Shown here: positions 39,473 to 55,791 of the stretch, in pieces
How the letters are laid out: each line of letters opens with the position of its first letter
Position numbering within the stretch: position 1 is the stretch's first letter
Assembly: GCA_964427615.1 (NCBI GenBank)
Contig: CAYRUR010000006.1
Span: 1-63,811 of the forward strand
Reading direction: 5' to 3'
Origin: an uncultured Gammaproteobacteria bacterium
GTDB taxonomy: Bacteria > Patescibacteriota > Microgenomatia > Levybacterales > GWA1-39-11
DNA: 63,811 nt
Notes under the pieces: model-generated
What the model was told of the DNA's origin: nothing
The model's input: only the letters and a program-made list of their open reading frames with translations
Database searches by the model: none
Translations under genes and position numbers: made by a program

Positions 39473-40516
39473 TTAGAATTGTTCTAAAAAGTCCAGGTTA
39501 TTAGAATACAATAACCGTAAATCATCAATTTCAATGCCTTCTTTCATCATTAACACTCGTTCTACTCCCCAACCAAAAGCAAAGCCAGTATATTCTTTAG
39601 GGTCAATTCCGCCATTTTTTAAGACGTTAGGATGAACCATGCCTGCTCCTCCAATTTCAAGCCATCCTTCTTTACATAATCGGCACCCTACTCCATTGCA
39701 AATGCCACAGGAGATATCTACTTCAAAAGAAGGCTCGGTAAATTGGAATTGGTAGGGTCTGATACGGGTTACTCTTTGTTCTCCAAAATATGATTTGGCA
39801 AAATAATCCAATACTCCTTTTAAATGAGTAATGGATATGTCTTTATCAACTACCAAACCTTCAAACTGATGAAACATGGCAGTATGGGATATATCCGACT
39901 GTCTTCTGTAGGTTTTGGCGATATTGAGCATCCTGATTGGCAATTTTCCTTTTTCCATCTCTCGTATTTGACCTGATGAAGTATGAGGAGTGAGTACCAT
40001 AGGACCGTATTTATCACTTTCTTTTTGATTGATAAAAAAGGTTTCCCATTCATCTCTGGCAGGATGATTTTCAGGGAAATTTAAAGCACCGAAAGCATAC
40101 CAGTCCCACTCTACTTCTGGGTATCGTACTCGACTAAAGCCTATCTTTTCAAAAATACGTGTGATCTCTTCTATTGCTTGAGTAATCAGATGCAAATGTC
40201 CCAGCGGAGGTCTTACGCCTGGTAAGGTGATATCAATGGCTTCTCTTTTTGTTTCTTTTTTCTGTTGACGCAGCGCTGCTTCTTTTTCTGCCAAAAGGTT
40301 TTCTATGATTGTCTTTATTTCATTTGCAAGTCGGCCGACTTCTGGTTTTTGCTCTTTTGGTAGTTTGGTAATTTCTTTCAGAGTGGTAGTAAGTCTTCCA
40401 CTTTTACCTAAAAATGAGAGTCGCAACGTATTCACCTCTTCAAGATTTGAGGCATCAATGATCAACGCACTTGCATCATTTTTAATTTTTAAAAGCTCTT
40501 CTTCCATATATCTCAT
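39473..40516 (-). CDS. pheS: phenylalanine--tRNA ligase alpha subunit
   Basis: 347-aa ORF with HPARDEWETFF, class II motifs FRRQSDISHTAMFHQFEG and GFAFGWGVERV. An alternative start is at 40507. Confidence 0.95.
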   Translation of the reverse strand: MRYMEEELLKIKNDASALIIDASNLEEVNTLRLSFLGKSGRLTTTLKEITKLPKEQKPEVGRLANEIKTIIENLLAEKEAALRQQKKETKREAIDITLPGVRPPLGHLHLITQAIEEITRIFEKIGFSRVRYPEVEWDWYAFGALNFPENHPARDEWETFFINQKESDKYGPMVLTPHTSSGQIREMEKGKLPIRMLNIAKTYRRQSDISHTAMFHQFEGLVVDKDISITHLKGVLDYFAKSYFGEQRVTRIRPYQFQFTEPSFEVDISCGICNGVGCRLCKEGWLEIGGAGMVHPNVLKNGGIDPKEYTGFAFGWGVERVLMMKEGIEIDDLRLLYSNNLDFLEQF

Positions 40517-40560: not shown

Positions 40561-40896
40561 TCACAAATTGCGCTCATTTGCATTAATTTCACGGGTTAAT
40601 TGGTTTCCCACATAGTCTATTAAGACTACTCTACTACCCTCTTGAATAGCTTCTTGCTGTTCTGGATCCAATAGATTGTACATGGCATAAGTTGTCTCTG
40701 CTGTGCGAAGTTCACCTATTGGTACTTCTATACCTTGTTGTGCATCATATAAAACTTGTGCAGTTTTGGTAAGAGTGTCCCGTGAAATAACGGCTCCACT
40801 ATGGCTTTCTTCAGCCTTTCTTCTTATTTCATTACGACGCTCAAGTCCTGTCATAGGCTCTTGCATAGTTGCTACGTTAGTATCTCTTTCTACCAT
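40561..40896 (-). CDS. hypothetical protein, first gene downstream of the Phe/Tyr leader
   Basis: Start trimmed to ATG 40896, preceded by a strong SD (agaGGAGGTGaaaaatATG). 111 aa with no recognisable motif. It lies 45 nt upstream of pheS. Confidence 0.6.
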   Translation of the reverse strand: MVERDTNVATMQEPMTGLERRNEIRRKAEESHSGAVISRDTLTKTAQVLYDAQQGIEVPIGELRTAETTYAMYNLLDPEQQEAIQEGSRVVLIDYVGNQLTREINANERNL

Positions 40897-40924
40897 ATTT
40901 TTCACCTCCTCTCTTTTTTCCAAC

Positions 40925-41094
40925 AAAAAAACCTCCCGTTTGGGAGGTTCACTTTTTTGATGGATAGTTATCTTATTTTCTTAATCCACCAAGCAACCTC
41001 CCGGTTTGGGAAGTAAAGTAAAAGTAAAATGATACTGTCTGGTGGATGTTCATGATTAAATAATACGCTACCATAGTGTGATTCCTTTTGTCAA
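40925..41094 (-). promoter_or_regulatory. pheM-like ribosome-mediated transcription attenuator (cassette 4)
   Basis: -35 TTGACA (41094-41089), 18-nt spacer, TAGCGT (41070-65), mini-ORF 41053-40973. E1 CTTCCC (41013-08), E2 GGGAGGTT (41002-40995), E3 AACCTCCC (40949-42), E4 GGGAGGTT (40937-30) plus U-tract. Confidence 0.65.
40973..41053 (-). CDS. 26-codon leader peptide rich in Phe/Tyr
   Basis: Hand translation gives MNIHQTVSFYFYFTSQTGRLLGGLRK. The FYFYF codons lie just 5' of E1, and the ORF runs through E1 and E2. Confidence 0.55.
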   Translation of the reverse strand: MNIHQTVSFYFYFTSQTGRLLGGLRK

Positions 41095-41099
41095 GGTAA

Positions 41100-41456
41100 T
41101 TACTTTGAAGATTTAAAAGCGGTTTCTACGATTTTTTGAAATGTTGCTGCGTCTTCTTGTACCAGGTTGGCAAGCATTTTTCTGTTAATCTTGATGTTTT
41201 TCTCTGTCATGGCATGCATGAATGCGCTATAAGAGTGTCCTTGCAGTTTTACAGCCTCACTAATTCTGGTGATCCAAAGGCGTCTGAAATCTCTCTTCTT
41301 TCGCTTTCTGCCATGGTATGCATAGCTTCCTGCATGAAGCATCGCCTCTGTAGCTACTTGAATGAGTCTTCTCTTTGTACCTCTGTAACCTTTTGTAAGG
41401 TCTAATATTTTGTTATGTCTGCGTCTTGCGATGACGCCTCTTTTTACTCGTGCCAT
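41100..41456 (-). CDS. rplT: 50S ribosomal protein L20
   Basis: 118-aa ORF starting MARVKRGVIARRRHKKIL.., the typical L20 N-terminus. Confidence 0.95.
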   Translation of the reverse strand: MARVKRGVIARRRHNKILDLTKGYRGTKRRLIQVATEAMLHAGSYAYHGRKRKKRDFRRLWITRISEAVKLQGHSYSAFMHAMTEKNIKINRKMLANLVQEDAATFQKIVETAFKSSK

Positions 41457-50380: not shown

Positions 50381-50539
50381 AAAAAAATCTCCCTTTTAGT
50401 GGGAGATTGCAAGTTTTTTAAGTCCTTATGATTCTCCCACCGTATTAGCTGCTCCAAAAAAGGAGGCCAAAGCCAATAATGGGAAGAAACATCTTATTCA
50501 TGGATTCCCATTCTAAAATAGATTCACTTCTTTTGTCAA
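50381..50539 (-). promoter_or_regulatory. cassette 1: promoter, leaderless mini-ORF, antiterminator/terminator
   Basis: -35 TTGACA (50539-34), 18 nt, TAGAAT (50515-10), ATG 50501. E1 GTGGGAGA (50440-33), E2 TCTCCCAC (50406-399), E3 GGGAGA (50393-88), U7 (50387-81). Confidence 0.6.
50445..50501 (-). CDS. 18-codon mini-ORF of cassette 1
   Basis: MNKMFLPIIGFGLLFWSS. Its stop TAA lies 4 nt 5' of E1. The C-terminal LLFW-x-x-stop resembles the cassette 2 peptide. Confidence 0.4.
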   Translation of the reverse strand: MNKMFLPIIGFGLLFWSS

Positions 50540-51943: not shown

Positions 51944-52132
51944 AAAAAAAATCCTCCCGTTTTGTGGGAGGTTCTCTTTTTTTGCTTTTATTTTTTGAAT
52001 TACTTTCTTCTTAATAAAATCCTCCCACAAATTAGTCTCTCCAGACAAGGAGATTGACCATGCATGTAATGTGGAATGGATTCATATTCATAATTCTTGC
52101 TCATTGTAAAAGAATGACTCTTGTTTTGTCAA
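51944..52132 (-). promoter_or_regulatory. cassette 2: promoter, leaderless mini-ORF, antiterminator/terminator
   Basis: -35 TTGACA (52132-27), 18 nt, TACAAT (52108-03), ATG 52091. E1 GTGGGAGG (52028-21), E2 CCTCCCAC (51971-64), E3 GGGAGG (51958-53), U8 (51951-44). Confidence 0.6.
52032..52091 (-). CDS. 19-codon mini-ORF of cassette 2
   Basis: MNMNPFHITCMVNLLVWRD. Its stop TAA lies 3 nt 5' of E1. Confidence 0.4.
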   Translation of the reverse strand: MNMNPFHITCMVNLLVWRD

Positions 52133-52935: not shown

Positions 52936-53109
52936 AAAAAAACCTCCCGTCTGGGAGGTGTCTGTAATTTGTATTAAATTTTAATTAGAAATTGGTATGT
53001 ATTCCTCCCACAACAAACCTAACCCCTCATTCTGGGGTGTTTGCTGCGTTTTGGTGAGGACACAAATACCATAAGAGGCATTATAACTAAATGGTTTCTG
53101 ATACGTCAA
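52936..53109 (-). promoter_or_regulatory. cassette 3: promoter, leaderless mini-ORF, antiterminator/terminator
   Basis: -35 TTGACG (53109-04), 18 nt, TATAAT (53085-80), ATG 53072. E1 GTGGGAGG (53011-04), E2 CCTCCCAG (52958-51), E3 GGGAGG (52948-43), U7 (52942-36). Confidence 0.55.
53019..53072 (-). CDS. 17-codon mini-ORF of cassette 3
   Basis: MVFVSSPKRSKHPRMRG. Its stop TAG lies 7 nt 5' of E1. The peptide is unrelated to those of cassettes 1 and 2. Confidence 0.3.
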   Translation of the reverse strand: MVFVSSPKRSKHPRMRG

Positions 53110-55756: not shown

Positions 55757-55791
55757 AAAAAAAGCCAAATCTTTTGGATTTGGCCTTTTTT
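55757..55791. terminator. bidirectional intrinsic terminator
   Basis: aaaaaaaGCCAAATCttttgGATTTGGCcttttttt has A-run and T-run flanks. Confidence 0.6.

Follow-up and report, generated by a model that had tools for sequence, protein, structure and literature searches.

How could a bacterium from the Candidate Phyla Radiation (CPR, or Patescibacteria), with a tiny genome, few recognisable regulators and unusual ribosomes, match the expression of its phenylalanyl-tRNA synthetase genes to the supply of the amino acid? To our knowledge, almost nothing is known about gene regulation in these bacteria. The question is raised by the spacer between rplT and the pheS and pheT genes on contig CAYRUR010000006.1, which was analysed over its whole length of 63,811 nt (the window below) and belongs to a member of Candidatus Levybacteria (CPR, Microgenomates). 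This spacer holds a short open reading frame (ORF) with a run of Phe and Tyr codons, followed by RNA elements that can pair in mutually exclusive ways and that end in an intrinsic terminator. We suggest that it is a ribosome-mediated leader-peptide transcription attenuator, through which the supply of charged tRNA-Phe and tRNA-Tyr would control orf111 (a small cistron), pheS and pheT, and we put the probability of this reading at roughly 0.8. The sequence holds the features of a classical attenuator, namely an ORF with cognate codons, a terminator, an antiterminator that excludes it, an appropriate placement of the codons and cognate regulated genes.

The leader and its predicted switch

The elements of the leader all lie on the minus strand, and promoter assignments here and below are consensus matches rather than mapped ends.

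41094-41089, minus strand: -35 box TTGACA, 5 nt past the rplT stop codon, read from the sequence
41073-41065, minus strand: first option for the -10 box, TGg-TAGCGT, 18 nt after the -35 box, a consensus match only
41065-41060, minus strand: second option for the -10 box, TATTAT, overlapping the first and 6 nt before the ATG
41053-40973, minus strand: leader ORF MNIHQTVSFYFYFTSQTGRLLGGLRK, 26 codons plus TAA (ATG at 41053, TAA at 40975-40973), read from the sequence and in a conserved frame
41047-41039, minus strand: 5' strand of helix P0, AUCCACCAG (codons 3-5), pairing with 40993-40984
41029-41015, minus strand: regulatory codons UUU UAC UUU UAC UUU (F Y F Y F), identified by aromatic enrichment in relatives
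41014-41008, minus strand: E1, (A)CTTCCC in DNA and ACUUCCC in RNA, 5' arm of the anti-antiterminator hairpin
41002-40995, minus strand: E2, GGGAGGTT (RNA GGGAGGUU), pairing with E1 or E3
40993-40984, minus strand: 3' strand of P0, CUUGGUGGAU, its GGUGGAU doubling as the 5' arm of an inner hairpin
40965-40959, minus strand: 3' arm of the inner hairpin, AUCCAUC, predicted to stack under E2:E3 in the antiterminator
40949-40942, minus strand: E3, AACCTCCC (RNA AACCUCCC), pairing with E2 (antiterminator) or E4 (terminator)
40937-40930, minus strand: E4, GGGAGGTT (RNA GGGAGGUU), 3' arm of the terminator
40931-40925, minus strand: T7 (U7 in RNA) tract, tail of the terminator, from a terminator scan

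A first-pass annotation of this DNA had described a 26-codon ORF that places five consecutive Phe/Tyr codons before a four-element switch, and both the ORF and each of the proposed pairings are present. E1:E2 comprises 7 bp with one G-U pair, E2 and E4 are identical 8-mers, and E2:E3 and E3:E4 are 8 bp each; the terminator, as found by the scan, has a GC-rich stem of 8-9 bp, a 4-nt loop and the U7 tract (40949-40925). The 161-nt leader folds at -45.8 kcal/mol, compared with -29.9 +/- 3.6 kcal/mol for dinucleotide shuffles (z = -4.4, 0 of 200 shuffles reaching it), and its minimum-energy fold combines the terminator with an E1:E2 hairpin enclosed by P0, a helix of 9 bp in which codons 3-5 pair with the stretch that follows E2. 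The P0 duplex reaches -14.7 kcal/mol in the window versus -7.8 kcal/mol for shuffles (p = 0.005). It is also significant in three relatives (L001, L102 and the plus-strand leader of L098), whose sequences differ; as a feature of the whole family described below it is not supported, being significant only in the window's subclade.

In the mechanism that we propose, transcription would start on the AUG of the 26-codon ORF or a few bases upstream of it, and a ribosome would initiate on the leaderless 5' end. With aromatic aminoacyl-tRNAs plentiful, the ribosome would pass F-Y-F-Y-F and E1 would pair with E2 behind it; in the window P0 would close around E1:E2, E3 would be left free to pair with E4, and polymerase would terminate at 40931-40925. 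With Phe-tRNA or Tyr-tRNA scarce, the ribosome would stall on the Phe/Tyr codons and cover E1; E2 would stay accessible, since it does not start until 15 nt past the last Phe codon. E2, aided by the inner hairpin, would then capture E3 as it emerges, block the terminator and allow read-through into orf111-pheST. RNA that reads through from the rplT operon untranslated would fold into E1:E2 and the terminator, so that the element would also insulate pheST from that operon.

A family of leaders and its regulon

Comparison of rplT-pheS spacers among relatives, which had been proposed as a check on the prediction, recovered a conserved Phe-rich mini-ORF together with the four elements. We fetched 80 Levybacteria pheS loci, the closest genome loci by pheS, all from metagenome-assembled genomes of Levybacteria/Levyibacteriota within the Patescibacteria group. 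The arrangement rpmI-rplT-pheS-pheT is common among them, and many have just 50-100 nt between rplT and pheS and no leader. At least 21 of the 80 (about a quarter) carry the leader: BLAST and regular-expression scans yielded 19 leaders, and a covariance-model search added those of two divergent relatives, L005 and L053, and a second copy in L045. The covariance model R1, built from 32 short-form leaders with the window left out, retrieves the window leader at 68.8 bits (E = 5e-11). Metagenome DNA was searched with a pattern that specified only UUUUACUUUAC, GGGAGGU and CCUCCC (the Phe codons, E2 and E3). This pattern matched 53 loci, every one of which also has E4 and the U-tract, neither being required by the pattern, and all complete loci among them have an in-frame mini-ORF initiated by ATG.

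About 70 related loci carry the element, and de-duplication of the genome and metagenome sets leaves 66 distinct leaders encoding 65 distinct peptides of 11-34 codons. The mutually exclusive pairings E1:E2, E2:E3 and E3:E4 are kept in all 66. In 32 of them, which make up the short form, GGG AGG runs straight into the stop codon (e.g. MIKSMNFGFYFTSLTGR); the long form, to which the window leader belongs, continues for 4-7 extra codons (...GRLVDGLRN). Some contigs carry two leaders, divergent or in tandem (L098, one on each strand; L133, two copies; L045, at 2292-2398 and 2628-2733). In L101 a 1-nt deletion in the T-run breaks the frame, which could reflect an assembly error or a dead copy, and in L128 (1207-1375) genes for tRNA-Thr(UGU) and tRNA-Tyr(GUA) lie directly upstream of a Phe/Tyr leader on the same strand.

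The conservation of the mini-ORF is that of a translated sequence. An in-frame start and stop are kept in 66 of 66 leaders despite the variation in length, and the frame of the aromatic codons is open from the ATG to E2 in 64 of 66, compared with 3 and 22 of 66 for the other two frames. The peptides share a core, F-Y-F-T, preceded by positions occupied by F, Y or W. Over the six codons ending at the last Phe, the aromatic fraction rises from 0.49 through 0.69, 0.74, 0.97 and 0.97 to 1.0, against a background of 0.078 in the long ORFs of the window, and the F-Y-F core is kept in 97-100% of the 65 peptides. At codons -5 to -3, which the search pattern left free, F, Y and W interchange through non-synonymous changes (TAT, TAC, TGG, TTT, TTC), so what is conserved there is the class of amino acid rather than the nucleotides. 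The leader would be a sensor of aromatic codons generally, with an F-Y-F core and F/Y/W upstream, which corrects a Phe-only view of it.

The placement of these codons is nearly fixed. The last Phe codon, counted from its first base, precedes E2 by 15 nt in 51 of 66 leaders (range 13-18), and E1 begins at +3 from this codon, 1 nt past its end; a ribosome with that codon in its A site would hold E1 wholly within its footprint and have E2 just past its leading edge. We modelled the footprint by masking a chosen codon on transcripts cut at the end of E3. Masking any one of the three aromatic codons of the core left E2:E3 as the best fold in all 66 leaders, which is consistent with the earlier proposal that stalling at FYFYF would cover E1 and permit E2:E3; with the mask on the stop codon it was the best fold in 8 of 66. 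In the commoner short form, a ribosome on the stop right after GGG AGG does cover E2. Mean energies across the family are -7.5 kcal/mol for the E1:E2 hairpin (-4.4 kcal/mol with E1 shuffled), -20.0 kcal/mol for the antiterminator E2:E3 with the inner hairpin, and -13.2 kcal/mol for the terminator. Between E2 and E3 lies a segment whose hairpin fold beats shuffles in 51 of 66 leaders (mean z = -3.1), with stem sequences that vary widely.

Evidence for the pairings themselves comes from the divergent members. In L005, E1, E2, E3 and E4 read ACCUUCG, CGGAGG, CCUCCG and CGGAGG, so that all four have changed compatibly, and in L053 the switch elements have changed in concert to GCGGGG, CCCCGC and GCGGGG; both leaders retain aromatic peptides (MKHYINSANFGFFFTFA in L005 and MKNLTAVYYYFTSSNAG in L053). 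Formal counts were made on 41 model-aligned leaders. For the state with E1:E2 and the terminator, 95.3% of the cells are paired versus 45-72% when the partners are slid, with six pairs changed on both sides (0 of 500 shuffles); for E2:E3 the value is 88.5% (98.4% in the core) versus 35-66%, with three such pairs (1 of 500 shuffles). Taken singly, the E1:E2 helix is 88-100% paired and the terminator helix 98.5%. Plain MAFFT/RNAalifold alignments gave only invariant helices, and once a nested E1:E4 / E2:E3 fold, with no compensatory changes; these surfaced only after the covariance-model search had found L005 and L053.

The upstream regions point to a leaderless start. Of 57 distinct upstream regions, 28 have a -10-like hexamer whose end is 6-7 nt from the ATG, and in 23 this gap is 8-14 nt; a perfect TTGACA lies 17-18 nt upstream of the -10-like hexamer in 24 relatives. 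No Shine-Dalgarno (SD) sequence for the leader ORF, nor room for one, was seen in the 57 regions. With no SD and only 0-6 nt between the predicted transcription start and the ORF, the leader mRNA therefore probably starts on the AUG or no more than about 6 nt from it and is translated leaderless.

The genes that follow the leader tie the element to Phe and Tyr, because they encode either the synthetase or aromatic biosynthesis. The 53 metagenome loci were chosen without regard to any gene; 23 are followed by pheS(-pheT), mostly with one or two small unassigned ORFs in between, 16 have genes of the aromatic pathway, and the remaining 14 are too short or lack an assignment. The pathway genes encode 3-deoxy-D-arabino-heptulosonate 7-phosphate (DAHP) synthase (Pfam DAHP_synth_1) or a DAHP-synthase-like protein, 3-dehydroquinate synthase, type II dehydroquinase, 5-enolpyruvylshikimate 3-phosphate (EPSP) synthase, shikimate kinase, a fused prephenate dehydrogenase-dehydratase, aminotransferases and a PfkB kinase. 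In the genome set, the leader precedes a prephenate dehydratase-ACT gene in L023 and a shikimate kinase gene in L075, and in L072 a DAHP-synthase-like gene and a class IV aminotransferase gene lie between the leader and pheS. The element is a family with a regulon and not a lone pheST curiosity. At about 15 loci (e.g. L108, L117, L130) the start codon of a long ORF comes right after the U-tract with E4 (GGGAGG) at SD distance, and the terminator hairpin would there mask the ribosome-binding site as well. The window has a TTG at 40926 in the frame of orf111; the ATG at 40896, which has its own SD, is the likelier start.

Alternative explanations

Several points weigh against attenuation by a stalled ribosome. 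Promoter use, leaderless translation, stalling and termination are all inferred from sequence only, the -10 box of the window (TAGCGT) is weak, and we know of no demonstration of leaderless initiation or of transcription-translation coupling in CPR bacteria. Among sequencing runs, DNA runs from a bioreactor community contain this genome, and a search for RNA runs with the sequence found none. The first-pass annotation had held that full translation to the stop would cover E2, and this fails in the window, which is one of the 8 leaders whose stop-codon mask leaves E2:E3 as the best fold, because its stop lies about 20 nt beyond E2. A terminating ribosome would leave E2 unmasked there, and the simple model allows E2:E3 to form; the off state in the window must therefore rely on E1:E2 and P0 re-forming behind the ribosome. 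When full-length RNA carrying a stalled ribosome is folded to equilibrium, the terminator still comes out best in 26-36 of the 66 leaders, the two states being nearly isoenergetic and not cleanly separated by the mask, so the switch has to be kinetic. E2, E3 and E4 are nearly invariant, their change being constrained since each must pair with two partners, and independent covariation events are consequently few, resting on two or three lineages (L005, L053, and a further switch of the window, unit 4 below, with its Roizmanbacteria relatives). In the metagenome set part of this invariance is imposed by the search pattern.

One alternative is a real switch that works without a stalled ribosome: the conserved UUUUACUUUAC/E1 region might be the binding site of a protein, a small ligand or an uncharged tRNA, or control might be mainly translational, with the SD-like E4 being sequestered. 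The conservation of nucleotides at UAC (codon -1) and UUU (codon 0) would fit such binding, with TAC in 61 of 65 although TAT is the commoner Tyr codon in the genome (279 versus 133), and E4 with U7 directly before a start codon at the 15 or so loci mentioned above could act as an SD. However, the near-invariant UUUAC is accounted for by a pairing that lengthens E1:E2, its partner being the GUAA that follows directly on the 3' side of E2; start and stop are in frame in every leader and aromatic residues are exchanged through non-synonymous codons. A T-box would need more length than the roughly 130 nt of the leader, and no T-box or riboswitch model matches it. We regard this explanation as improbable. 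The hairpin might instead be a constitutive terminator or insulator of thrS-infC-rpmI-rplT, or end a free-standing gene for a small peptide or small RNA, with pheST expressed from elsewhere and the Phe/Tyr codons serving the peptide's own function rather than sensing. Four relatives that lack the leader do have plain CCUCC-loop-GGAGG-U7 terminators after rplT (L010:2928, L011:2568, L017:2948, L051:1904), so that SD/anti-SD-like arms seem to be the lineage's generic terminator stem; three other units in the window have a promoter, mini-ORF and terminator and no amino-acid run; and trans-acting leader peptides are known, such as peTrpL (PMC7298713). Against this explanation, every member has an exact E2 copy of the terminator's 3' arm that changes together with E3 and E4, the spacing from Phe codon to E2 is fixed, and the element also stands far from rplT before aromatic-biosynthesis operons. 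Moreover, only 14-29 nt separate it from a strong SD and start codon, with no promoter-like site seen between. On balance we think it quite improbable that the element does nothing more than terminate transcription or encode such a peptide. As for a chance meeting of an AT-rich spacer, a terminator and a fortuitous short ORF, U-rich codons are frequent at 38% GC and short ORFs are common, but the fold z-score given above and some 70 relatives with the same frame, codons and four elements already refute it, and we give it almost no credence.

Genomic surroundings and known systems

The spacer from rplT to orf111 measures 203 nt and the leader lies in it on the minus strand, as do the neighbouring genes.

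43965-42208, minus strand: thrS, upstream cluster
42224-41691, minus strand: infC, upstream cluster
41678-41481, minus strand: rpmI, upstream cluster
41456-41100, minus strand: rplT, last gene 5' of the leader spacer
40910-40903, minus strand: strong SD of orf111, AGGAGGTG (RNA AGGAGGUG)
40896-40561, minus strand: orf111, 111 codons, first regulated cistron, a small protein without Phe
40516-39473, minus strand: pheS, regulated synthetase gene
39357-37405, minus strand: pheT, regulated synthetase gene

These coordinates bear out the earlier description of a 111-aa protein with a strong SD as the first regulated gene, followed by pheS and pheT. The true start of pheS is probably the ATG at 40507 (MEEEL...) and not 40516, because nearly all relatives align only from residue 4 onward. 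Its closest relatives, at no more than 76% identity, are named Candidatus Levybacteria, Microgenomates or Parcubacteria, in agreement with the CPR-like genome that had been surmised. An exhaustive search with orf111 found three relatives (102-126 aa, 37-40% identity), and a word-indexed search returned orf111 alone. All three relatives have the motifs IRR..A...SGA and IDYVGNQ, and the two homologs that could be placed, P0123 and P0125, again have a Phe leader on one side and pheS on the other. AlphaFold gives orf111 a confident model (predicted local distance difference test score 83.8), and the protein has no match in Pfam and no fold match in the PDB (best E = 0.9, template-modelling score <= 0.28). 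orf111 is a real, fast-evolving small protein. Across 33 loci, whose ORFs are not mutually independent, the first small cistron after a Phe leader has 38 Phe in about 3060 residues (1.2%) compared with 4.4% in pheS/pheT; this could be an adaptation to translation during Phe shortage or the plain composition of small hydrophilic proteins.

Elsewhere in the window are three further mini-ORF switches of the same design, making four with the Phe leader.

53109-52936, minus strand: unit 2
Promoter of unit 2, minus strand: TTGACG 53109-53104, 18 nt, TATAAT 53085-53080, then 7 nt
Mini-ORF of unit 2, minus strand: ATG at 53072, MVFVSSPKRSKHPRMRG and stop, no obvious amino-acid run
Switch of unit 2, minus strand: E2 GGGAGG 53009-53004, E3 CCTCCC 52958-52953, E4 GGGAGG 52948-52943, T7
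52132-51944, minus strand: unit 3
Promoter of unit 3, minus strand: TTGACA 52132-52127, 18 nt, TACAAT 52108-52103, then 11 nt
Mini-ORF of unit 3, minus strand: ATG at 52091, MNMNPFHITCMVNLLVWRD and stop
Switch of unit 3, minus strand: E2 GGGAGG 52026-52021, E3 CCTCCC 51971-51966, E4 GGGAGG 51958-51953, T8
50539-50381, minus strand: unit 4
Promoter of unit 4, minus strand: TTGACA, 18 nt, TAGAAT, then 8 nt
Mini-ORF of unit 4, minus strand: ATG at 50501, MNKMFLPIIGFGLLFWSS and stop
Switch of unit 4, minus strand: GGGAGA 50438-50433, TCTCCC 50406-50401, GGGAGA 50393-50388, T7

A stringent scan of the 64-kb window gave seven strong-terminator entries, two of them one locus (55764-55784) on both strands, and the four terminators of CCUCCC/UCUCCC type all have an exact upstream copy of their 3' arm. 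A simple promoter scan of the window did not list the leader promoter. The ORF downstream of unit 2 (52758-52183, 191 aa) has no Pfam match, and unit 4 precedes genes for a 652-aa protein, also with no Pfam match, and an M20 peptidase. Roizmanbacteria-type homologs of the 652-aa protein (L135:2320-2470, L136:2140-2440, L138:1945-2370) have the same build with mini-ORFs rich in Leu, Ile and Val, and their elements read GGCGGG/CCCGCC/GGCGGG where the window has GGGAGA/UCUCCC/GGGAGA, a triple concerted change. Unit 4 could be a branched-chain amino-acid attenuator of peptide scavenging. In the general design, a leaderless mini-ORF may come before a switch of three elements, made up of identical, SD-like E2 and E4 and an anti-SD-like E3; that the Phe/Tyr leader is one specialised member of such a design across the Microgenomates (CPR) is a tentative idea, about which we are more doubtful than confident. 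Between 50600 and 51800 the GC content is 0.48-0.53 compared with about 0.38 around it, and ORFs overlap in several frames on both strands. This segment may be of foreign origin, may be what is left of a decayed gene or may encode an RNA that has escaped recognition; its candidacy as a structured RNA was rejected, the fold z-score being just -1.3 with no Rfam or Pfam match.

A conserved attenuator in this lineage would imply that CPR bacteria couple transcription and translation tightly enough for attenuation and that they initiate on leaderless mRNAs. It would also mean that in some Levybacteria a full pathway for aromatic amino acids has been retained and is under regulation, and the covariance model can be used to annotate elements that Rfam now misses. 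In the literature that we searched, no paper on CPR, Patescibacteria or Levybacteria was found that deals with attenuation or leader peptides, in line with the earlier remark that such attenuation had not been described for this kind of reduced genome, although such papers may exist. We consider the element very likely to be a new, leaderless, CPR-lineage form of the classical Phe attenuator, a mechanism that is itself known.

Among known systems, mycobacteria reportedly have leaderless polycysteine upstream ORFs (uORFs) that act as attenuators (bioRxiv 10.1101/834739), the translation of cognate codons setting the expression of the downstream operon. The Levybacteria leader resembles these in being a leaderless short ORF with cognate codons, and differs from them in amino acid, in phylum and in having an explicit pair of intrinsic terminator and antiterminator. 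With the T-box of Firmicutes pheS it shares the gene and an output of terminator versus antiterminator; unlike a T-box it has about 130 nt rather than more than 200, has no specifier stem and would sense through a translated ORF. Classical attenuators of aminoacyl-tRNA synthetase genes are reported for gamma-proteobacterial pheST and for trpS and leuS of Streptomyces, whereas Firmicutes use T-boxes for such genes (PMC1262725). No T-box matched at gathering threshold in the window or at E <= 10 in 40800-41200, and the ribosomal-protein L20 leader model gave no match, the element being downstream of rplT and not upstream of infC-rpmI-rplT. At E <= 10, Rfam returned only Phe_leader (RF01859, 28.3 bits) and noise from microRNA and snoRNA models, so that no Rfam family, T-box included, reaches its threshold in the spacer. 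For RF01859 that threshold is 55 bits; E. coli pheM, as a control, scores 75 bits, and 15 of 20 relatives tested score 28-41 bits, which together with the window leader puts all 16 scored Levybacteria leaders below the threshold. These leaders are not members of RF01859 by that measure. Specific homology to it is not established either, with unit 4, a non-Phe switch of the window, at 30.6 bits and R1 giving E. coli pheM 24.6 bits (E = 0.1), no better than unrelated switches of the window.

The likeness to the proteobacterial leaders lies in their logic and layout. The pheL leader of pheA (RF01859), which is known from gamma-proteobacteria and for which Bacteroides and Desulfobacterium offer a few candidates (PMC3082878), is likewise a Phe-codon leader for Phe biosynthesis, as are the relatives that precede prephenate dehydratase and shikimate genes, and the RF01859 consensus ...UUUaccuucCcCUaauugGgaGg... 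resembles UUUACUUCCCAAACCGGGAGG of Levybacteria. E. coli MG1655 has the identical cluster order, thrS-infC-rpmI-rplT-leader-pheS-pheT, with pheM in the leader's slot, as the first-pass annotation had stated; the ending that it gave for the pheM peptide agrees with the translated gene. Both leaders encode a short peptide ending in an aromatic run, both have a CCUCC/GGAGG terminator with an upstream GGAGG copy and the shared string UUUUACUUUA, and in both the supply of Phe-tRNA would control the synthetase by the same logic. In contrast to pheM, the Levybacteria leader is predicted to be leaderless, has a conserved Tyr codon, usually has its stop inside or just after E2, is followed by an extra small cistron before pheS, and belongs to a CPR phylum. 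The same position in the cluster and the common UUUAC...CCC...GGGAGG...CCUCCC core make shared ancestry with proteobacterial pheL/pheM a possibility, and the resemblance raises a question of deep ancestry versus convergence that can be tested.

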